Source of the DNA: an uncultured Phascolarctobacterium sp.
GTDB taxonomy: Bacteria; Bacillota; Negativicutes; Acidaminococcales; Acidaminococcaceae
DNA length: 64,000 bases
NCBI RefSeq assembly: GCF_934190775.1
Contig: NZ_CAKPTG010000008.1
Location: forward strand, 26,337 to 90,336
Direction: 5' to 3'
A program made the position numbers and the translations under genes. Shown here one piece after another: positions 4,515 to 64,000 of this stretch (position 1 is its first letter; each line of letters starts with the position of its first letter). The notes under the pieces are model-generated. The model had not been told where the DNA came from and did no database searches. It saw nothing but the letters and a program-made list of their open reading frames with translations.

Positions 4515-5192
4515 CTACTCCTCGCCCTGCTGACGTTTGGAGTAATGCTTTTCATAAAAATCATGCATCACGTCCACGTCCTCACAGCTCAGCTCGTACA
4601 CCTTGTTGCCGGTGCCTGCACAGATTACGGCAATCTGCGCCGCTTTTTCCAGAATTTCGGCAGCAAGCAGTGCCTCCGCCAGGTTCTTGCCCCAGCAGAC
4701 AGCGCCATGGTTGGCCAGCAGCACAGCCTTTTTGCCGTTCAGCGCACGCACGGTGTTCTCCGCCAGCTCCTGCGTACCGCAGAGAGCGTACTGAGCGCAC
4801 TCCACCCTGCCGCCGATAATCTGCACGATATCCTCGATAATCGCCGGCACTCCCTGATGCATAGCCGCAAGCGCACTGGCATAAATGCTGTGCGTATGGA
4901 TTACGGCACCTGCCTCTGGATAGGCGTTGTAAATGGCGGTATGCACCTTCAGTTCGGAAGAAGGAATGCGCTTGCCTTCGACAACTTCGCCATCACGGTT
5001 GATAATGACAACGTCCTCAGGCGTCAGTGTTTCATAACCGTGACCGGAGGGTGTGATAGCAATATTCTGCGCGTCAATGCGGCAGCTGATGTTGCCCCAG
5101 GAGCCTGCAACGAGCTTTTTTTCAATCAGCGCATGGCCTGTTTCCACAATGGCAGCACACGCACTTTCTTTAGCAAATAACTGCGTTTCCAT
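4515..5192 (-). CDS. Class II aldolase/adducin-family protein (methylthioribulose-1-phosphate aldolase Ald2- or MtnB-like)
   Basis: 225 aa; class II aldolase Zn/His signature (AVIHTHS...ANHG); embedded in MTA salvage operon. Confidence 0.75.
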   Translation of the reverse strand: METQLFAKESACAAIVETGHALIEKKLVAGSWGNISCRIDAQNIAITPSGHGYETLTPEDVVIINRDGEVVEGKRIPSSELKVHTAIYNAYPEAGAVIHTHSIYASALAAMHQGVPAIIEDIVQIIGGRVECAQYALCGTQELAENTVRALNGKKAVLLANHGAVCWGKNLAEALLAAEILEKAAQIAVICAGTGNKVYELSCEDVDVMHDFYEKHYSKRQQGEE

Positions 5193-5194
5193 GA

Positions 5195-6439
5195 TTATTC
5201 GGCAGCCAGATATGCCTTCTGCTCATCGCTCAGGGTGTCGATGCCTGCGCCCATAGCCTGCAGCTTCAGAGCAGCAATTTCGGTGTTCAGCTCTTCCGGC
5301 AGTACATACAGTTTGTTTTCCATTGCTCCCTTATGGTCGAGCAGGTATTTCATAGCCAGGAACTGCATAGCGAAGGACAGGTCCATGATTTCAATCGGGT
5401 GACCGTCGCCGCATGCCAGGTTAACCAGACGGCCTTCGCCCAGCAGGTTCAGCTTACGTCCGTCAGCCATGGTGTAGGTCATAATATTTTTGCGTACTTC
5501 ATACGGAGCAACTACGGAAAGCTCCTCCAGATGATGTTTGTTGATTTCTACGTCGAAGTGGCCTGCGTTGCACATAACAGCGCCGTTCTTCATAACCTCC
5601 ATATGCGGTTTGGTGATTACGTCCTTGCAGCCGGTTACGGTTACAAAGATATCGCCGTGCTTAGCAGCCTCCTGCATCGGCATAACGCGGAAGCCGTCAA
5701 ATACTGCTTCAATACCCTTAATAGGATCAACCTCGGTAACGATAACGTTAGCGCCCAAGCCTTTGGCACGCATTGCAACGCCCTTACCGCACCAGCCATA
5801 GCCTGCAACAACAACGGTTCTGCCTGCTACGGACATGTTGGTGGTACGCATGATGCCATCCCAGGAGGATTGGCCGGTACCGTAACGGTTATCAAACAGA
5901 TACTTGCAGTAAGCATCATTAACGGCAATCATCGGGAATGCCAGATGACCTGCCGCAGCCAAAGCCTTCAGACGATGTACGCCGGTGGTGGTTTCTTCGC
6001 TGCCGCCCATCAGGTTAGGAATCAGGTCACGACGTTCGCCGTGCAGCATATTAACCAAATCGCCGCCGTCATCAATAATCAGCTGCGGTTCGCTCTTCAA
6101 AGCTTCGCGCAAATACATATCATATTCTTCGTTGGTGCAGCCATGGGTTGCGAAAACAGTTACGCCGCTGTCAACCAGTGCTGCGGCAATTTCGTCCTGA
6201 GTGGAAAGCGGGTTGCTGCCGGTAACAACAACATTAGCGCCTGCGTTCTTCAGCACGAGTGCCAGATAAGCAGTTTTTGCTTCCAGGTGAATGGTTACAA
6301 CCATGTTGATGCCCTGGAAAGGCTTAGTTTTGCTGTATTCATCGTTCAGATGGTTCAGCAAGGGCATATATTCCTTTGCCCACGCGATACGTTGATGACC
6401 TAACGGTGCCAATTTGATGTCTTTAATAATGCTTTGCAT
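5195..6439 (-). CDS. ahcY: Adenosylhomocysteinase
   Basis: 414 aa; NAD-binding VVVAGYGWCGKG, conserved SAHH blocks (HLEAKTA, GGDLVN, NLACGDGHP). Confidence 0.9.
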   Translation of the reverse strand: MQSIIKDIKLAPLGHQRIAWAKEYMPLLNHLNDEYSKTKPFQGINMVVTIHLEAKTAYLALVLKNAGANVVVTGSNPLSTQDEIAAALVDSGVTVFATHGCTNEEYDMYLREALKSEPQLIIDDGGDLVNMLHGERRDLIPNLMGGSEETTTGVHRLKALAAAGHLAFPMIAVNDAYCKYLFDNRYGTGQSSWDGIMRTTNMSVAGRTVVVAGYGWCGKGVAMRAKGLGANVIVTEVDPIKGIEAVFDGFRVMPMQEAAKHGDIFVTVTGCKDVITKPHMEVMKNGAVMCNAGHFDVEINKHHLEELSVVAPYEVRKNIMTYTMADGRKLNLLGEGRLVNLACGDGHPIEIMDLSFAMQFLAMKYLLDHKGAMENKLYVLPEELNTEIAALKLQAMGAGIDTLSDEQKAYLAAE

Positions 6440-18162: not shown

Positions 18163-18239
18163 TTGGTCGGAGCGGCGGGATTCGAACCCACGACCTCTTC
18201 CACCCCAAGGAAGCGCTCTACCAAGCTGAGCCACGCCCC
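18163..18239 (-). tRNA. tRNA-Pro (anticodon GGG)
   Basis: Minus-strand sequence CGGGGCGTGGCTCAGCTTGGTAGAGCGCTTCCTTGGGGTGGAAG..GGTTCGAATCCCGCCGCTCCGACCA folds as cloverleaf; anticodon loop TTGGGGT; encoded CCA. Confidence 0.85.
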
Positions 18240-18301
18240 GAATCACAAGGAGTATTATACAGGTTTATTTGGATTTTGTCAACACTATTTTATAAATTAT
18301 T

Positions 18302-53811: not shown

Positions 53812-54295
53812 ATAGTGATACATATTTTTTGTGAAAAGTTTGTTGCCAAACGGATGATTTTTGGCAGACGCAAGGATTGCATACAAAAAGTCCTGCAGAT
53901 GACATGCTCCCCCATCTCCTGCTTGACTTTCCCCATATTTCAAGTAAACTTAAATTAAGTTCTTGAAAACCGCAAGTAAGCTTACGCATCTGGCTCATTT
54001 ACCTGCGGACAATTAAATAAGCAGTATATCCTGCAGATACATCTTTTCTGCAGAAGCTTAAGCAAGGCCATTTATATTTATCTGGTACATTCTAAGAGTA
54101 GTACGAACTTACGATTTTCTAATCGCAAAGGTACTGCTCTTTTTTGTTTTTAGGCACTTTGATAACTGCTGATGTATTTTTTACTTTATCCGTGTTAAAA
54201 TGTTATCGCTGAGCTTATAAATTTATCTCTCGCTTATGTAGAGAAACTGAAGGAAGATCAAGCTGAGCAGTCCTGCAAATAATCTTTTCGCTGTT

Positions 54296-54651: not shown

Positions 54652-55641
54652 TTATTTCTTGATGTTTTTGGTTTCCTGCTCCAAATCTAACAGGTCAAAC
54701 TCATCGGCTTGCGCTGCATCGAATGCTTTGCGACGTGCGTCAAATTCTTCGTAAATTTTACGGGCGTGTATCTGAGCTTGTTCCATGGTAATTTTCCCGT
54801 GGGATTGCAGCACGGGGACGCCATGATCTAAAAGCAGTTTATCTACACTGGCGCGCCAGAAGTCAAGCGTTAAGTCTTTACGCATTTTTACATGCAATTC
54901 AGCACTTTCAAGGAAGATAGTTACTAAACGATTAAGAACATCTATTTCGTCAGATGTTAAGTAATTTTTGGCAACTATAACATCAGCTTTGCGTACGATT
55001 GAACCACTCCATGAGGTCAAGGCCATATTCGGAGTATCTGCATTTGCACGTGTAGCTATAATTTCAGCAGCAGTTTTTCTTGTGACGCCAAAAAGCAGTT
55101 TGTTTTGCGTGTCTGCAAAGAATAAGTTCGTTGCTTTTTCGGTAACCTTGTAGTCGCTGGAGAGCGCAAACAAGTCACGCAACTTTTGATAAAAACGTTT
55201 TTCGCTGGCGCGAATATCGCGAATCTGTTCCAGCAATTCGTCGAAATAATCCGGACGGCCATCCGGGTTTTTCAAGCGGTCTTTGTCAAGGATAAAGCCT
55301 TTCTGCAGGTATTCTTTCAATGTATTGTTTGCCCACTGGCGGAACTGTGTGCCACGTGGGGAGCGAACGCGGAAACCAACGGCAAGAATGACATCAAGAC
55401 TATAGTATGAAACAAGATAATTTTTCCCATCTGCTGCAGTTGTTCGGATTTTCCGAACAACTGACTTTGCATCTAATTCGTCTTCAGAAAAGATATTTTT
55501 TATATGCTCGCTAATACTAGATTTACTGCTGTTAAATAAATCAACCATCTGCGCCTGCGTTAACCATACAGTGCCGTTATCGGCGTAAAGTTTAATTTCA
55601 GCTTTGCCATCTGCAGTGTTGTAAATAATAATGTCTGCCAT
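54652..55641 (-). CDS. RhuM-family virulence/DinD-like protein
   Basis: Start at MADIIIYNTADGKAEIKLYADNGTVWLTQAQMVDLF, the characteristic RhuM N-terminus; ~329 aa. Confidence 0.8.
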   Translation of the reverse strand: MADIIIYNTADGKAEIKLYADNGTVWLTQAQMVDLFNSSKSSISEHIKNIFSEDELDAKSVVRKIRTTAADGKNYLVSYYSLDVILAVGFRVRSPRGTQFRQWANNTLKEYLQKGFILDKDRLKNPDGRPDYFDELLEQIRDIRASEKRFYQKLRDLFALSSDYKVTEKATNLFFADTQNKLLFGVTRKTAAEIIATRANADTPNMALTSWSGSIVRKADVIVAKNYLTSDEIDVLNRLVTIFLESAELHVKMRKDLTLDFWRASVDKLLLDHGVPVLQSHGKITMEQAQIHARKIYEEFDARRKAFDAAQADEFDLLDLEQETKNIKK

Positions 55642-55668
55642 GTATTCATTCCTCACTTTCAAAATCTA

Positions 55669-56034
55669 TTATCCTAAACTCTCCACGTCTTCTTCCGCCT
55701 TGCGTTGGAGCTTGGCCAGCTTAACATCAATCAAATCGTCAATTTTTTTCTTGCCGTCAGCATCCAGCTGGCGGTATTTTTTTATGTGTGTTTCTTCTTG
55801 CTGGGTGAGGGAGAGAGATGGTGGCGTGGGAGCGTCTTCCAAGCCCATAAGGTAAGCAGGTTTTACTCCTAAAGCTTTAGCAAAAGCAACTATTTTTGAT
55901 TGGGTTATATCGTTTTCACCAGATTCTATCTTTGCTATTGTAGAACGTGATTTATAACCTAATCTTTTTGCGAGCTCTTCTTGAGACATATTTAAATCTT
56001 CTCGCCTTGCTTTGATTCTATCGTACAATGTCAT
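55669..56034 (-). CDS. XRE-family (CI-like) transcriptional regulator
   Basis: Start at MTLYDRIKARRE (AGGAGAG RBS); HTH MSQEELAKRLGYKSRSTIAKIESG; extended C-terminus. Confidence 0.8.
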   Translation of the reverse strand: MTLYDRIKARREDLNMSQEELAKRLGYKSRSTIAKIESGENDITQSKIVAFAKALGVKPAYLMGLEDAPTPPSLSLTQQEETHIKKYRQLDADGKKKIDDLIDVKLAKLQRKAEEDVESLG

Positions 56035-56190
56035 GAGCAACACTCTCCTGTCTTTAATATAAGGTTATAGCAGCATAATTGTTCCATATGATCAACAAAA
56101 AATTGCCTAGTAAGCAAAAATGTTGATAAAAAGGAACGAAGAGAGCATAACGAATCTGTGATTAAAAATCAACAAAAGAGGTGACAAATA

Positions 56191-56385
56191 ATGACGGACA
56201 GTATTACATGTGAATTAGCCGTCACTAAAGCGAGAATATCGAAAGGAGCTATAGCGAATGCTCTTGGGATATCTCGCATGAGTTTAACGCGAAAAATCAA
56301 CAATGTTACTGAATTTAAAGCCAGCGAAATTTCGCTGCTTAAAACTATTTTGCATCTTGATGACAAAGAGCGCGGTTTGAGTACC
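56191..56385 (+). CDS. Small Cro-like HTH protein, divergent from the XRE gene; reading frame runs into the CRISPR array
   Basis: N-terminus MTDSITCELAVTKARISKGAIANALGISRMSLTRKIN has HTH; no stop before first CRISPR repeat, so true 3' end is unclear. Confidence 0.35.
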
Positions 56386-57926
56386 ATCAGAAATTACGTC
56401 ACTCTCAAACAGTGGGAACAGTTACATCAAGAGGGCAACTGTTTGGGTACCATCAGAAATTACATCACTCTCAAACCATCGTTCCTCCTCTCTACAACTG
56501 TGTGGGGTTTGAGTACCATCAGAAATTACATCATCTCAAACAACGAGAAAAGTCAAAATAGCAGTTGTTTTGTTTGAGTACCATCAGAAATTACATCACT
56601 CTCAAACTCGAAGAAAGCATCGATGAATCCAACGTAAGTTTGAGTACCATCAGAAATTACATCACTCTCAAACTGTAATTGTACCTCTTACACAGGATAA
56701 AGAGTTTGAGTACCATCAGAAATTACATCACTCTCAAACTGCAATCAATGATTTAAGTCAGGTTATTCAGTTTGAGTACCATCAGAAATTACATCACTCT
56801 CAAACTTTGCCCCAGATATATACAGATAAATTCAAGTTTGAGTACCATCAGAAATTACATCACTCTCAAACTTAAGCTGCTGGGAGATTATGCGCAGGCC
56901 GGTTTGAGTACCATCAGAAATTACATCACTCTCAAACTATCTAGTTCTATGGCTTCTGCCGTTACGGGTTTGAGTACCATCAGAAATTACATCACTCTCA
57001 AACGAACGTACTGCACACGGTAAAAACGAAGTAGTTTGAGTACCATCAGAAATTACATCACTCTCAAACTGCAATCAATGATTTAAGTCAGGTTATTCAG
57101 TTTGAGTACCATCAGAAATTACATCACTCTCAAACTTTGCCCCAGATATATACAGATAAATTCAAGTTTGAGTACCATCAGAAATTACATCACTCTCAAA
57201 CTTAAGCTGCTGGGAGATTATGCGCAGGCCGGTTTGAGTACCATCAGAAATTACATCACTCTCAAACTATCTAGTTCTATGGCTTCTGCCGTTACGGGTT
57301 TGAGTACCATCAGAAATTACATCACTCTCAAACGAACGTACTGCACACGGTAAAAACGAAGTAGTTTGAGTACCATCAGAAATTACATCACTCTCAAACA
57401 GGAAACAAAAGGAAAAATTCCCAAGAAAAGTTTGAGTACCATCAGAAATTACATCACTCTCAAACCCGCTTGCGTGGCAGGATATTATAAAGCATGTTTG
57501 AGTACCATCAGAAATTACATCACTCTCAAACAATAAGGCCGCTATATCCTGCTTCCTTCAAGTTTGAGTACCATCAGAAATTACATCACTCTCAAACCTA
57601 TATTTTGAACGCTGCGCAATTACTTCTGTTTGAGTACCATCAGAAATTACATCACTCTCAAACTTCCGTTTGATGCGATATACGTCGGTCTTGGTTTGAG
57701 TACCATCAGAAATTACATCACTCTCAAACTAAAAGATAATGACTACCGCAACGAAGAGGTTTGAGTACCATCAGAAATTACATCACTCTCAAACGCAAAT
57801 GGCGCAGACAAAAAGAAGAAGTATGTTTGAGTACCATCAGAAATTACATCACTCTCAAACGCAGAACGTTTAACATTGATAAAAACTATTGTTTGAGTAC
57901 CATCAGAAATTACATCACTCTCAAAC
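56375..57926 (-). CRISPR. Type II-A CRISPR array: 24 x 36-bp repeats, 23 spacers (30 nt; one of 29 nt); repeat on transcribed (minus) strand GTTTGAGAGTGATGTAATTTCTGATGGTACTCAAAC
   Basis: Regular 66-bp period; the three leader-distal repeats (56375, 56441, 56507) are degenerate (A>G, A>G, 1-nt deletion); spacer units 6-10 repeated exactly as 11-15; leader-proximal end abuts csn2. Confidence 0.95.
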
Positions 57927-58030
57927 CTCAAATTAAGAGATTATCCACGAATGAAACTATCATCACCATAGCGTAATTTCCTCAGGTCCCTATAAAGACA
58001 TTATAAATCACTCAAAATTCTTTGTCAAAA
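57927..58030 (-). promoter_or_regulatory. CRISPR leader (AT-rich, between csn2 stop and first repeat)
   Basis: 104-bp AT-rich segment adjacent to the conserved-repeat end of the array; contains a degenerate repeat-like stretch (57994..58014). Confidence 0.5.
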
Positions 58031-58702
58031 TCATTTCACAACACATAAATCATCATCAACTATACAAACAACTTCTTCTGCAAGCTCCTGCTCAACACTG
58101 TTTTCCAAAAGAAGCAGATGCATTTTCCTATAAAACGCTTCTTTATAAAAATTCTGTAGCTCATCATTCGTCAAGTAAGTCTTCAAATTTACGAAAGCCA
58201 AAATCTTTACTTTTTGAAACTTGCTGCAGACATCCATAAAATATACTAATCCTTCTAAAAAATTCTCCTCCCCGGCTTCAAATTCCACCTCTAATGCTTT
58301 AAATAAGCTCTGCAGATTAAAATCGTCTTGAAACTTCAAGGCATAATCAACCTGATTAAGCAAGCCATAAGTATACTTTGCTATCTGACCTTTCACTCTA
58401 CAGGTATTCAAATAATTTTCTTCATTCATTCCCAGCTTACCAAGCTCATTATATAAGCCGGTTAATGCTTTGCGTGAATTTATCTCTAAAGCAAACGGAT
58501 TTACAACAAGGCAGACATCCTTATCTATCTTTAAAATTTTATCATTGTCAGATAAAACAAATCTACCTTCTCCACCGTCAATCTGCTTGGCAAGCTCTTG
58601 AATCATTCTTCGAAAAAGCTCCTTATGCTCCATCACTAAAACATTAACTCTGTTTTCTTGAAAAATAAGCTGCTGCTCCAGCTCTGTATAAACCAACTTC
58701 AT
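58031..58702 (-). CDS. csn2: Csn2 (type II-A CRISPR adaptation protein)
   Basis: 223 aa; position downstream of cas2 and length typical of short Csn2; overlaps cas2 by 4 nt. Confidence 0.8.
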   Translation of the reverse strand: MKLVYTELEQQLIFQENRVNVLVMEHKELFRRMIQELAKQIDGGEGRFVLSDNDKILKIDKDVCLVVNPFALEINSRKALTGLYNELGKLGMNEENYLNTCRVKGQIAKYTYGLLNQVDYALKFQDDFNLQSLFKALEVEFEAGEENFLEGLVYFMDVCSKFQKVKILAFVNLKTYLTNDELQNFYKEAFYRKMHLLLLENSVEQELAEEVVCIVDDDLCVVK

Positions 58703-59025
58703 AATATTACCAGTCTTTCATCACTGTTCAAAACATCCTTATGCGCTTCTCCGACCAAAACCTCCATACGCGAAAACTGTCGTTCCGTAACTGTAAGCAA
58801 CTGCACCAATCCTTCTTGCGGCAAATTCAGCTTGACCTTCTTGATGATAGCATCTGCCGCTATTGCATTAAGCGCAATTTTGCAATACACAGATTCCTGC
58901 ATCATCATAAACCCATTCTTTAACAGATACTTACGAAAAATCCTATAAGAACGCTTATTCTCAAGCGTGGTGATTGGCAAATCGAACAGAACTAATATTC
59001 TCATAAATCTATAACTCATAATCAC
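58699..59025 (-). CDS. cas2: Cas2
   Basis: 108 aa; Cas2 N-terminal beta-strand with conserved Asp (ILVLFDLP). Confidence 0.9.
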   Translation of the reverse strand: MIMSYRFMRILVLFDLPITTLENKRSYRIFRKYLLKNGFMMMQESVYCKIALNAIAADAIIKKVKLNLPQEGLVQLLTVTERQFSRMEVLVGEAHKDVLNSDERLVIL

Positions 59026-59907
59026 TTACACAAAACTGCTCCACTTGATTATGCTTACATCATTATTGTTAAGTGCATCAAAAACACTCTTACAATACAG
59101 CTTAATAGCATAATTAAGAGTAACCTGCTTTTCATTGTTTATAACATTTTTATTTAGTACTTCTAAAATCTCATGCTTCTGTTCTTTATCAAAGCAATGC
59201 AGCTTTTCTTTTACCAGCATATCATATACCTTATAATCAACAAAAGGCCGCAACGGCTCCATAATATCCGAGCCTAAATTGAAAGCATTGAAAATATTAT
59301 CATGAATCAGTCCAAGCTGTGTAATGTAACCATTGGCAGTTATCTCCCTGTTGCATGCAGCCAATAAAACCATATAACCATAATTCAATGCTGCATTAAC
59401 AGCAATATCATCCGCTCTAGTAAATCCTAGTCCAAAAATGGAGTTAAAATAAACTTTGGCCGCATGACCTTCCCGATTACTAGCATCCAGATACTGCAAC
59501 TGTGTGGCATATTCGTCCAACATAGAAGCTGTATCAAACCCCAGCTTTTTCAACAATGCAGATTGCATCTTTATTTTGGTATATATAATCGCCGTACCAA
59601 CATCGCCTTTTGTGCTTTCGTTCCAGGATATCTGCTGCTTTATTTTTGCACTGACATCATGCGCTCCATAATACGGAATAAGCTCAGCTGAAGGATTTCT
59701 TTTGCTGTCACAAAAAATAACCTTTATTTTTCTGTCCATCATTTCCGCAAGCAAAGCTGCTGTCAATGAAACCTGCGTTGTTTCAATAAGCAGTACTGAA
59801 ATTTCATCAAGATGGACCTTGGTGGTCCGCTCTCCGCGAACCACCATATAGCCCAATTGTAAATCTAGCTTTGCCCGTGTACTTATAACAATTACACGCC
59901 AGCTCAT
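59026..59907 (-). CDS. cas1: Cas1 (type II)
   Basis: 293 aa; Cas1 metal-site residues (E...H...E) and overall architecture; overlaps cas9 stop by 4 nt. Confidence 0.9.
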   Translation of the reverse strand: MSWRVIVISTRAKLDLQLGYMVVRGERTTKVHLDEISVLLIETTQVSLTAALLAEMMDRKIKVIFCDSKRNPSAELIPYYGAHDVSAKIKQQISWNESTKGDVGTAIIYTKIKMQSALLKKLGFDTASMLDEYATQLQYLDASNREGHAAKVYFNSIFGLGFTRADDIAVNAALNYGYMVLLAACNREITANGYITQLGLIHDNIFNAFNLGSDIMEPLRPFVDYKVYDMLVKEKLHCFDKEQKHEILEVLNKNVINNEKQVTLNYAIKLYCKSVFDALNNNDVSIIKWSSFV

Positions 59908-62900
59908 AGCTTCATCAGATCCACTTCCTGTTCAAAAATTCCTGTCGGAGATTGATTAATCAAAATGCATTGCTTACACTTTGTAATATTATTTGTTGTT
60001 TTGATTACTCCACAAGAATTGCCTTTACCAAGCAATTTGAAATCTGCTGAAGCACTGGCACATTTAAAGAGGTTCAAAAACTCCCCTATCACATGTATCT
60101 GTTTTGATAAAGATAACTTTTCAAATGCTCCCCTTTGCTCTTGCAAATTTTCTGTTTGTGATGCAGGCCTGTTTTTATACAAATTATTAGCTGATTTAGC
60201 AAGCAACATGTCATAAATCTGCATATTGGCTTCGTTGCTGATTCCCCACTTTTGCTTAAAATAATCCAAGCGTTGCTGTGCTTTTTGTTTTTGCGTATCA
60301 TCCGCATTTTTATCAGATATAATTCCCTCATTTGATGCTATATCGGATTCATACTTTAACGCCTTTTTCAGATAATCAGCAACATCATCAGCTACACACA
60401 ACTGTCCGGCAGCATAAAACACAAGTTGTTTTCCAGTTCTGCCGGAGATATGCATAGGAAAGCCATTAATCTTAAACAGGCTGTATTTTTTGATTTTTGG
60501 AATCTTTATTTCAGGCTTGCAAAGCTGTACAACGTCAGTAAGATACTTTTGTACCGCATTTTCTCCTTGTTTAGCATAAACTAAAGGAATAGCTTCTATA
60601 GACAGCTGCACTGCTCCCTTTTTTCCTTCTGATTTGACTAAAGCGAAATATGCTGTGGTCAAGGAATCATAGCCGCCATACTTCTCTACGGATAAACCTG
60701 CTTTCAAAGGCAGTTGACCACTATTTGCTTTCAAAGGATTCTGTTTAAATAATTCTCCCTTGCCTTCAACCGGCTGTCTGGTAAAGAGAATATTATTCTT
60801 ATGCATGGTCTTGGTAACAGTTGTAATCGTACCGTCTTTGCCGCCAATCCAGGCAATCTCATTATCACGTTTAATGCTAAATTTATAAAAAATCTCCGGC
60901 TTCAGGCTATAACGTCTGTTATCTTGATTTTTGGTAATAAAACTTAAAGGGTTAGCGGTAAATTTCACATGATAGCAATTACCGACCACAATATTCAGAT
61001 AAGCATCCTTCGCATGATGTAAATCGTTAACATCTCTACATTTTACAAATTCAAACTTTTGACGGAAATCGGATACATTACCGGCCTTAACATATACAAT
61101 CTCACTATGCTTATACGCTGTCTTTAAAATCGTAGCAACAGCTTTTGTCGACTGTCTTGTCTCCACAAGCTGTCTGCTGATAAAGCCGGCAAGCTCTTCA
61201 TCTCTCAGCTGTGTACTGCGTGTCAGACGTTCATATTTTCTTTCATCAATGAATCCCTTATCATATAGCAGCTTCCAGAAGCTATGCATTTTGGTGCGAA
61301 TTGCTGCATCAAGCGGATAAATATCTGTTTTGGCGGCATTAACCTCCTTTTTAACAAGTACCCTGTTGCTAAGGCTGTCATCCTTTGTTTTGGAACGCGG
61401 ATAGATATGATCAATGTCATACAGATTATCATCATACAAAGAAGCCAGTTCTATTCTTTCGCCCGTATACATGCAGCGTCCCATCTGTGTATAGTAAAGA
61501 TAGAGCTTATCACTGCGCAAATCATCTTCTTTTTTGGAACTCAGTTGAATTTTAAATGCGTTGAGCTCATCTGTATGAGGCATAAAATCAATATTTTCTT
61601 CCCTGCATTGTTTATATAAGTCCTGCAACTTCTTCAGACGACTGTCAGTACGCTTGCTTTCTTCTTTACTCCTAGCCATCTCAATAAAAATACGCTTAGG
61701 CTCGTGGCCCATAATTTTCTTGATTTCTTCCAATATCGTCAGCGTCTGCCAAATAGAACGTTTAACCGAAGGAGAAACATAAAGTTCTTCCACGTCTTTG
61801 TAAGTAAGCTTACCATTACTGCTTTGTCTGCTACCATTAAAATCTTTAATCTTGCCAATAAAGTCATAAGAACAATAGTTGCTCAAAAGCTCCATGAAAT
61901 TCTTATTTGTATGACGCAAAGCGCTGATAATAGTGACAAGTTCACCAAAAGCCTTATCCTCATAAGCAATAGCACTGCTATTCAATAAAGTTGCAGACAG
62001 ACTCCCCCAATCTTTATATTTCAGTTTTTTGATAGCTTTGATTTTATCATCAGAAATATGCGGATAAGTGTTTTTTATTTTAGTGACCAGCATCTTTTTC
62101 TCGTCGCAGAATAAGGTTATCCATCTGATAATATTTTCGATTTCTTCTCTATATAATTGAATGTAATCTTCGCCGAAAATTCTTTTAAAGTCATTATAGG
62201 ACTTCATCGAAGCATTTATCTTGTCATCAATGCCTCCGATATTTTGGAAAGAAATATTTTCCTGCCTAAAAAATCTTTCTAATGTTTTCTTGGTAACCTT
62301 TGATGTCTTAGTAAGAAAAAGCTGTTTAAAGATTTTTTCCAGCACATCGACTGGTAAGCGTTCGCCGTCAACAGTAATATTGTTAATAGCATTACGCACC
62401 ATAAACTCCGAATACAGTAATGATTCCTTAGGAAGTACGTCTTCACCGAAAAGATACGTGCATTTTGCTGTCATATTGGTTATAAACTTTTCTGCACTTT
62501 CTTCCAGATTAACAATTTCAGTGAAATTCCAAGGATAAATTTTTTCATTCTTACGTACAACCCAACATCTGCCCTGTTCTCTGGACATACGTGTACCCGC
62601 AAGCGGACCTACATAATACGGTATTCTGAACTTAACAATCTGTTCAATTTTTTCACGCACAGAAAGACCGTTATTATCAGTCTCACCTAAAAATGGTAAA
62701 TATCTCTCAGCATTATCAAGAATGCATTTTAATTCCGCTAAATGCACCTGGATAGGAATGATGCCATTATCCTTAGTTGTTTGTTTAGGAAAAGCAAATC
62801 CATTGGCAACACGAAACAGCAAACGCTCCTCCTCTGTTTTGGCATCATCAATACTCGTAATGTCCTGCATTATCTTTTTGTATTCTGCAATACCGTCAAG

Positions 62901-64000
62901 CTGCTTCTTTAGATCCTTACAAAAATCAAGCTGATTACGTCCTTTGATTCCTTTAGCATATTTCTCATAAGAAATATCTCCATCCTGCCTGAAAATCTTA
63001 TTATATAAAGGCTTACCTTTAAGCATGGATTTCAAAACAGCCAAATCACGTTTATGATCTTCATAAACCTGCACCTTGCACTCAGAAAGCAGATGTTGTT
63101 CACCTTCATCTTTTTTGCCTACATCAAGATGCAATATTTTTGCCAGCAAACTCCAATCATAAATAGCTTTGAAACGGAGTAACCCTTCGTAACGCTCTCC
63201 TAATGCTGCTGTAAACACAGGTTCAAGTTCATCCAAATCATCATCCTGAAAGCTTACTGATTTCTTTTCACATTCATCTAATTCTTTATCAGCAAATAAC
63301 TCAGCTAACTTAGCTTTACCGCCGCTAAAAAGCTGTATAATAGCTTTCTGCTGTTTTGTCTGTGCCGGTAATAAACTCTGCATTGCTTTCTGCTTAGTGG
63401 TACGTCCTAAGTTTACATCGCACAAAACTTTAGCCAATTCATCTATATTTTGACATGACCAATCTTCAATTCCCATCTCGTCACGGACATAATTCTCAAC
63501 CTCACTGAAAACCGCATTAAAATCGTTAACTTTGGAGGCATCAAGATTATCAAACAAAAAATGTCCACGATGCTTAGCAATGTGCTGTACAGCGAGATAA
63601 AGCAAGCGTACATCAAAAGGTCCTTTCTGGGTTGCCAGAGCATAACGCAAATGGTACATAGTAGGATATTGTTGATAAAACTCCTTATCTGTATAATTTT
63701 TATCAACAAATAAATTATATACTGCCTTCTCGCGCTTATCATCTAATTGCAAACGGCTATCCTCTAAACGCATAAAGAAACCGGGATCAACCTTAGCAAT
63801 CTCATCCGCAAATAATTCCTGCAACATTTTAAGGCGCCAGGTAGTTCTGTCAATTCTGCGTCTGCCAGAGCGAAAAACTCTTGTAGAGGCTGCAGTATTT
63901 GCTGAATCAAAAAGTCTGATTCCCCATAACGCTTTGCCATTAAATTTTAAAATATTATAATTTGTATCCGTAACAGCCCAGCCAACAGATGCATCACCCA
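59904..64000 (-). CDS. cas9: Cas9 (type II-A), partial: N-terminus lies beyond window end
   Basis: More than 1365 aa in window; frame open to 64000 and upstream residues read ...GDASVGWAVTD (RuvC-I); HNH motif DIDHIYPRS...N; RuvC-II/III and PAM-interacting C-terminal region. Confidence 0.9.
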   Translation of the reverse strand, partial: GDASVGWAVTDTNYNILKFNGKALWGIRLFDSANTAASTRVFRSGRRRIDRTTWRLKMLQELFADEIAKVDPGFFMRLEDSRLQLDDKREKAVYNLFVDKNYTDKEFYQQYPTMYHLRYALATQKGPFDVRLLYLAVQHIAKHRGHFLFDNLDASKVNDFNAVFSEVENYVRDEMGIEDWSCQNIDELAKVLCDVNLGRTTKQKAMQSLLPAQTKQQKAIIQLFSGGKAKLAELFADKELDECEKKSVSFQDDDLDELEPVFTAALGERYEGLLRFKAIYDWSLLAKILHLDVGKKDEGEQHLLSECKVQVYEDHKRDLAVLKSMLKGKPLYNKIFRQDGDISYEKYAKGIKGRNQLDFCKDLKKQLDGIAEYKKIMQDITSIDDAKTEEERLLFRVANGFAFPKQTTKDNGIIPIQVHLAELKCILDNAERYLPFLGETDNNGLSVREKIEQIVKFRIPYYVGPLAGTRMSREQGRCWVVRKNEKIYPWNFTEIVNLEESAEKFITNMTAKCTYLFGEDVLPKESLLYSEFMVRNAINNITVDGERLPVDVLEKIFKQLFLTKTSKVTKKTLERFFRQENISFQNIGGIDDKINASMKSYNDFKRIFGEDYIQLYREEIENIIRWITLFCDEKKMLVTKIKNTYPHISDDKIKAIKKLKYKDWGSLSATLLNSSAIAYEDKAFGELVTIISALRHTNKNFMELLSNYCSYDFIGKIKDFNGSRQSSNGKLTYKDVEELYVSPSVKRSIWQTLTILEEIKKIMGHEPKRIFIEMARSKEESKRTDSRLKKLQDLYKQCREENIDFMPHTDELNAFKIQLSSKKEDDLRSDKLYLYYTQMGRCMYTGERIELASLYDDNLYDIDHIYPRSKTKDDSLSNRVLVKKEVNAAKTDIYPLDAAIRTKMHSFWKLLYDKGFIDERKYERLTRSTQLRDEELAGFISRQLVETRQSTKAVATILKTAYKHSEIVYVKAGNVSDFRQKFEFVKCRDVNDLHHAKDAYLNIVVGNCYHVKFTANPLSFITKNQDNRRYSLKPEIFYKFSIKRDNEIAWIGGKDGTITTVTKTMHKNNILFTRQPVEGKGELFKQNPLKANSGQLPLKAGLSVEKYGGYDSLTTAYFALVKSEGKKGAVQLSIEAIPLVYAKQGENAVQKYLTDVVQLCKPEIKIPKIKKYSLFKINGFPMHISGRTGKQLVFYAAGQLCVADDVADYLKKALKYESDIASNEGIISDKNADDTQKQKAQQRLDYFKQKWGISNEANMQIYDMLLAKSANNLYKNRPASQTENLQEQRGAFEKLSLSKQIHVIGEFLNLFKCASASADFKLLGKGNSCGVIKTTNNITKCKQCILINQSPTGIFEQEVDLMKL

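Follow-up and report, generated by a model that had tools for sequence, protein, structure and literature searches.

A five-unit tandem duplication in the type II-A CRISPR array of a gut Phascolarctobacterium, probably produced by misalignment of the array's own repeats

The window, a stretch of 64,000 nucleotides from an uncultured Phascolarctobacterium sp., carries an ordinary and intact type II-A locus in whose CRISPR array five spacer-repeat units have very probably been copied in tandem through misalignment of the array's own repeats. Direct string comparison showed that the two blocks (Table 1) are exactly equal, the unit being exactly 5 x 66 nt, and TRF reported a period of 330 nt; the verbatim recurrence of units 6-10 as units 11-15, claimed in the preliminary description, is thereby confirmed. 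The exact match reaches 37 nt further to the left, so that 56703-57069 equals 57033-57399 over 367 nt. This extension consists of repeat 6/11 and one chance base, and the match ends exactly at the start of spacer 16. Both breakpoints are located inside identical 36-nt repeats, and the copies lie in tandem, alike in order and orientation. At the novel junction the repeat is followed by T, the first base of spacer 6, against an A on the normal path into spacer 16. The identical 83-aa translations described earlier at 56772 and 57102 are both present, and these ORFs are nothing but translations of array sequence. That five successive spacers of 30 nt should recur in the same order by chance is out of the question.

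Table 1. Position and character of the features in and around the CRISPR array (coordinates of the window)
Feature	Position	Strand	Remarks
CRISPR array	56375..57926	-	24 repeats (36 nt) and 23 spacers, 18 of them unique
Trailer (leader-distal) end	56375..56541	-	R1-R3, all degenerate, with the oldest spacers 1-2 in between
R1	56375-56410	-	A>G at repeat position 24
R2	56441-56476	-	A>G at repeat position 6
Repeat 6	56704..56739	-	trailer-side bound of the block; putatively one of the two misaligned repeats
Block copy 1	56740..57069	-	spacers 6-10, each with the following repeat (+ strand order)
Repeat 11	57034..57069	-	sits at the novel spacer10-repeat-spacer6 junction, the diagnostic sequence of the duplication
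Block copy 2	57070..57399	-	spacers 11-15; no difference from copy 1
Leader	57927..58030	-	104 nt between csn2 and array; perfect TTGACA-17-TATAAT sigma-70 promoter, 58028->58000
csn2 (type II-A signature)	58031..58702	-	TIGR01866, 3.8e-54; profile positions 1-221 of 222
cas2	58699..59025	-	TIGR01573, 1.2e-19
cas1 (type II)	59026..59907	-	TIGR03639, 8.4e-86
cas9	59904..64000 (gene cut by window end)	-	TIGR01865, 3.3e-246; match from profile position 60
128-aa ORF	56191..56577	+	first ~61 aa a small Cro-like HTH; reads on through repeats 1-3
RhuM-family gene and XRE/RstR-like repressor	54652-56043	-	RhuM Pfam match 6.9e-103; divergent from the HTH ORF

Repeats 6 and 11, two identical 36-nt direct repeats, would have misaligned, and the 330 bp between them would have been copied in tandem, either through slippage during replication or through an unequal exchange between sisters. 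Such a process would not need Cas1 or Cas2; it would create one new junction, spacer10-repeat-spacer6, and leave the spacers themselves unchanged, and its reciprocal product would be the familiar block deletions. Slippage or unequal exchange is suggested by the position of both breakpoints within repeats and by the literature, and sequence alone cannot separate slippage from unequal crossover. Once the duplication had been formed, the 367-nt identity could also serve its RecA-dependent loss. The only expected effect would be the availability of two templates for crRNAs 6-10, and we infer that the duplication is neutral. A renewed acquisition of the same five spacers by Cas1-Cas2, through ectopic or repeated adaptation, could be thought of, as type II-A systems are known to integrate spacers ectopically (cited in PMC8047081). 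However, nothing specific in the present array speaks for it. [quoted passage not shown]

The array itself was described before as a CRISPR array with 18 unique spacers, and both the call and the count hold, the call being supported by the repeat count, the neighbouring cas genes, the promoter, the anti-repeat and the PAM. The 36-nt repeat, which on the plus strand reads GTTTGAGTACCATCAGAAATTACATCACTCTCAAAC, occurs in 23 copies at no more than one mismatch, against a chance expectation of 0 in 100 shuffles. Transcription of the array proceeds along the minus strand, where the repeat in the crRNA sense is GTTTGAGAGTGATGTAATTTCTGATGGTACTCAAAC. Spacers are numbered here from the trailer, in plus-strand order, with spacer 1 the oldest. 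All but one of the 23 are 30 nt long, and the single 29-nt spacer noted earlier at 57730-57758 was found there as spacer 21. The earlier account of the degenerate repeats, with one A>G in each of the first two and a 1-nt deletion in the third, was equally correct; repeat 3 is a 35-nt copy (56507-56541) that misses one C. Since the crRNA is a minus-strand transcript, the degenerate repeats (56375-56541) stand at the end away from the leader, as had been stated, and the promoter direction, the minus-strand cas genes, the anti-repeat and the 3' PAM agree with this orientation. The A>G terminal variant of R1 is also found in a related locus (L017) in which all the spacers differ, and the degenerate terminal repeat therefore appears to be an old anchor. 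A comparison with Rfam gave no family in the array or the leader, the sole match being a tRNA at 18167-18240.

The array belongs to a complete, canonical type II-A CRISPR-Cas9 locus on the minus strand. The matches of cas9, cas1, cas2 and csn2 are all to NCBIfam equivalogs and far over the cut-offs. The start of cas9 should lie about 43 nt past position 64000, as 1379 aa are called for the protein in sister contigs, which would place the first ~14 codons outside the window; the Cas9 copies in these contigs contain the Pfam domains Cas9_RuvC, HNH_4, Cas9_REC and Cas9_PI. The leader promoter agrees with the consensus at 12 of 12 positions and is directed into the array. A tracrRNA was predicted in the near-identical contig L016 (505-616, minus strand), corresponding to ~64087-64198 in window-equivalent coordinates and hence outside the window. 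It consists of a 25/26-nt anti-repeat, which is complementary to the minus-strand transcript of the array, followed by hairpins and a T-run as terminator, and it is situated 43 nt upstream of cas9 on the opposite strand. With its genes intact and its promoter present, the system is apparently functional. The exact Csn2 is recorded as WP_293829183.1 from 'uncultured Phascolarctobacterium sp.' and is found on 212 contigs, and Cas9 shares 91-93% identity with proteins from MAGs of Phascolarctobacterium, P. succinatutens included. The host belongs to the succinatutens group of Phascolarctobacterium and lives in the human gut. The loci of five Phascolarctobacterium species representatives share the same repeat and have no spacer in common with the window.

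Two causes of the duplication had been offered in the preliminary description, namely recombination between repeats and an assembly artefact, and the array was to be compared with those of sister strains. The alternatives were soundly chosen. The comparison revealed the junction in two other samples and the single-copy form in a near-identical strain, and the recurring junction together with the single-copy strain favours a repeat-mediated duplication. Sister contigs were found by exact-protein look-ups. One of them, L020 (ERZ4567674 NODE_417, 86 kb), contains an identical 23-spacer array with both copies of the block. A second, L021 (ERZ4561865 NODE_267, 83 kb), crosses spacer10-repeat-spacer6 and stops 10 nt into the next repeat, which is the point where an unresolved loop of the assembly graph would break. 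Each of the two has a single SNP relative to the window, at 54076 (T versus A). Because of this one-base difference the window is regarded as a separate assembly of a very close strain, and because L020 and L021 have the same SNP they appear to represent one strain lineage, that is, independent assemblies but not independent duplication events. In a third contig, L019/L016 (ERZ27287381 k141_287486, 52 kb), the 18 unique spacers are all present, their order unchanged, and the block occurs only once. Aligned globally with the window minus one block copy, it showed 1 difference in ~12.4 kb, and this third contig with its single block carries the same base at 54076 as both junction contigs. A near-clonal strain having the same 18 spacers and the block once suggests either that the duplication event was very recent or that the copy number is an unstable polymorphism.

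The duplication might still have been produced by assembly, if the genome contained the block once and the loop was written twice, or if reads from a mixed population were wrongly joined. We consider this unlikely. The existence of a near-identical strain assembled with one copy and the break of L021 exactly at the loop, which indicates that assemblers struggle there, would fit an artefact, but three separate assemblies, those of the window, L020 and L021, all contain the spacer10-repeat-spacer6 sequence. Moreover, the T following the repeat at the junction stands against an A on the normal path, and if the k-mers of the assemblies were longer than 36 nt, beyond the length of the repeat, the junction would demand reads that contain it. 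Any genome bearing the junction must contain part of the block at least twice. The names of the contigs are divided by style, that of the single-copy contig being MEGAHIT-style and those of both junction contigs SPAdes-style, and some influence of the assembler on the number of copies written is conceivable. A simple loop is often traversed once by assemblers. Judged from these sequences, the duplication is probably real, meaning that the junction and at least two copies of the block exist in the lineage of the window. When sister arrays were sought through Csn2, Cas2, the ORF of 62 aa at the leader end and the trailer ORF of 128 aa, 2-4 distinct places were obtained for each, those of the 164-212 contigs that share neighbouring genes being collapsed. 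Neither the 45-aa ORF over the junction (56937-57074, minus strand) nor the 83-aa array ORF was on record by exact look-up.

At its leader end the array looks static in the lineage of the window. The ORF covering the leader-end spacers (57743-57931, minus strand; spacer 23, spacer 22 and part of 21) is indexed as an exact copy in 75 blocks of the collection, and 23 contigs from these 75 blocks were read. Near-clonal strains from different samples had gained no new leader-end spacers, despite intact cas genes and a perfect leader promoter. This exact recurrence suggests that there has been little recent acquisition in a widespread lineage.

A comparison of the spacers with phages and plasmids, and a check for self-targeting, had also been proposed. 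Phage targets were found for spacers 1, 3, 10 and 16. When the whole array was compared with phages, convincing matches were obtained for spacers 1 and 3 only, both to gokushoviruses; a match to a crAss-like phage (E 0.5) was dropped, as it overlaps repeat sequence. Spacer 1 (56411-56440) matches gokushoviruses (Microviridae) at 30 of 30 positions, its protospacer being located in a conserved intergenic hairpin (GTGGGAACAGTT...AACTGTTCCCAC) common to many gokushovirus genomes from pig, monkey and human. Spacer 3 (56542-56571, just past R3) matches another gokushovirus at 27/30. These are the two oldest of the matched spacers, and they suggest that Phascolarctobacterium once served these ssDNA phages as a host. 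Spacer 10, which lies in the duplicated block and is the same as spacer 15, has exact protospacers in 9 contigs from metagenomes as well as in 11 viral contigs (39-48 kb) of IMG/VR; its target is a gut phage that is common and measures roughly 40-48 kb. A ParB-like gene of this phage family (L032 3371-4729, minus strand, and L010) is matched by spacer 16 with 1-2 mismatches. Since the protospacers of both occur on the same 39-48 kb viral contigs, spacers 10 and 16, two adjacent spacers, appear to target one family of phages or possibly phage-plasmids. In the scan of metagenomes with spacer 10, protospacers were found on phage-like contigs only and no arrays were hit. The whole array gave no match to plasmids, and no spacer matched elsewhere in the window at up to five mismatches, so that neither plasmid targets nor, within the window, self-targeting was seen.

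The 3' flanks of the protospacers, in crRNA orientation, are gacAC for spacer 1, tctAC for spacer 3, cgtAC or cgcAC for spacer 10 and cgtAC or catAC for spacer 16. The dinucleotide AC is found at +4/+5 of the 3' flank in all four independent protospacers, and the 5' flanks are without a motif. These flanks, from only four protospacers, imply a putative PAM of approximately NNYAC on the 3' side.

Given a phage this prevalent, it could be argued that selection keeps the duplicated form, the doubled crRNAs 6-10 giving a better defence. The numerous exact protospacers of spacer 10 and the occurrence of the duplicated form in more than one sample would be in line with such an adaptive amplification. 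[quoted passage not shown] An adaptive amplification is therefore regarded as very unlikely. The same low probability is given to a selected copy-number polymorphism, by which near-clonal gut Phascolarctobacterium would alternate between a single copy and two (or more), with the expanded form favoured when the ~40-48 kb phage targeted by spacer 10 is abundant. If this was true, arrays would tune crRNA dosage through reversible tandem amplification.

The trailer of the array adjoins a short gene on the opposite strand. Its 128-aa ORF is preceded by a ribosome-binding site, shows a weak match to DUF739 (E 0.005, below the cut-off) and has no stop before the array. The exact product is encoded on 164 public contigs. 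The junction between this HTH gene and the terminal repeat was also found in relatives with other spacers (L002, L015 and L017), the ATG being changed to ATC in two of them. The 128-aa ORF marks the trailer boundary and is outside CRISPR function. The HTH gene seems to have lost its 3' end to the array trailer, through truncation or replacement. Together with the divergent RhuM-family gene and the repressor, the HTH ORF looks like the remnant of a lysogeny-type switch of a mobile element, with the array on one side and the RNase J and FtsK genes on the other. The array trailer adjoins a tRNA gene instead in L001 and L003.

Block duplications within arrays had been called uncommon in the preliminary description. 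They are indeed a minority event, but they are well documented in surveys and reviews. Repeated spacer blocks have been noted in many arrays and read as duplications, for which misalignment during replication is the likely cause (review, PMC8047081). In CRISPRCasdb about 3% of the spacers are duplication candidates, 86% of these being simple duplications, and at least one candidate was found in 162 of 333 array groups, leaving 171 without (PMC11472070). In group B Streptococcus, a duplication was present in the type II-A CRISPR1 of 35.6% of the isolates (PMC5641575). Misalignment of short direct repeats during replication, independently of RecA, has been described (Lovett 2004, as cited in PMC8047081 and PMC11472070). 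Of eight further arrays from Phascolarctobacterium, one contains a duplicated spacer: L015 (array at ~4804-5896, in the window's plus orientation, with flanks of ~92-93% nucleotide identity) carries a single one, AATACTCTTCGCCTTCTGCATCCTCCAACA.

Repeat-mediated block duplication is thus a known phenomenon, and the system described here is ordinary and already annotated. What the window adds is a clean case, in which a recent block duplication is seen beside the single-copy form in near-identical strains. The duplication could be used as a strain marker for this Phascolarctobacterium lineage, and it is a reminder that short-read assemblies can give such arrays differing copy numbers. The spacer matches tie the bacterium to gokushoviruses and to gut phages of ~40-48 kb, which helps in assigning hosts to viral contigs.

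The locus resembles the type II-A systems of Streptococcus pyogenes SF370, S. thermophilus CRISPR3 and S. agalactiae CRISPR1 in the order cas9-cas1-cas2-csn2-leader-array, in the 36-nt repeats, 30-nt spacers, degenerate terminal repeat and 3' PAM, and in a tracrRNA upstream of cas9 on the opposite strand, predicted here in L016. It is unlike the streptococcal systems in that its host is a Negativicute, that its NNYAC PAM was inferred from only four protospacers, and that the trailer in the window adjoins a truncated Cro-like HTH gene. The duplication is of the same kind as those in S. agalactiae CRISPR1, S. thermophilus, Sulfolobus and CRISPRCasdb (PMC5641575, PMC8860593, PMC8047081, PMC11472070), being tandem, in the same orientation, mid-array and with breakpoints within repeats, and like these internal duplications it is polymorphic among close strains. 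The block of five units is larger than the one- and two-spacer duplications of the study on group B Streptococcus, whereas repeated blocks are explicit in the review. As in RecA-independent misalignment, the direct repeats concerned are short (36 nt), identical and closely spaced (330 nt), an arrangement that leads to tandem duplication.
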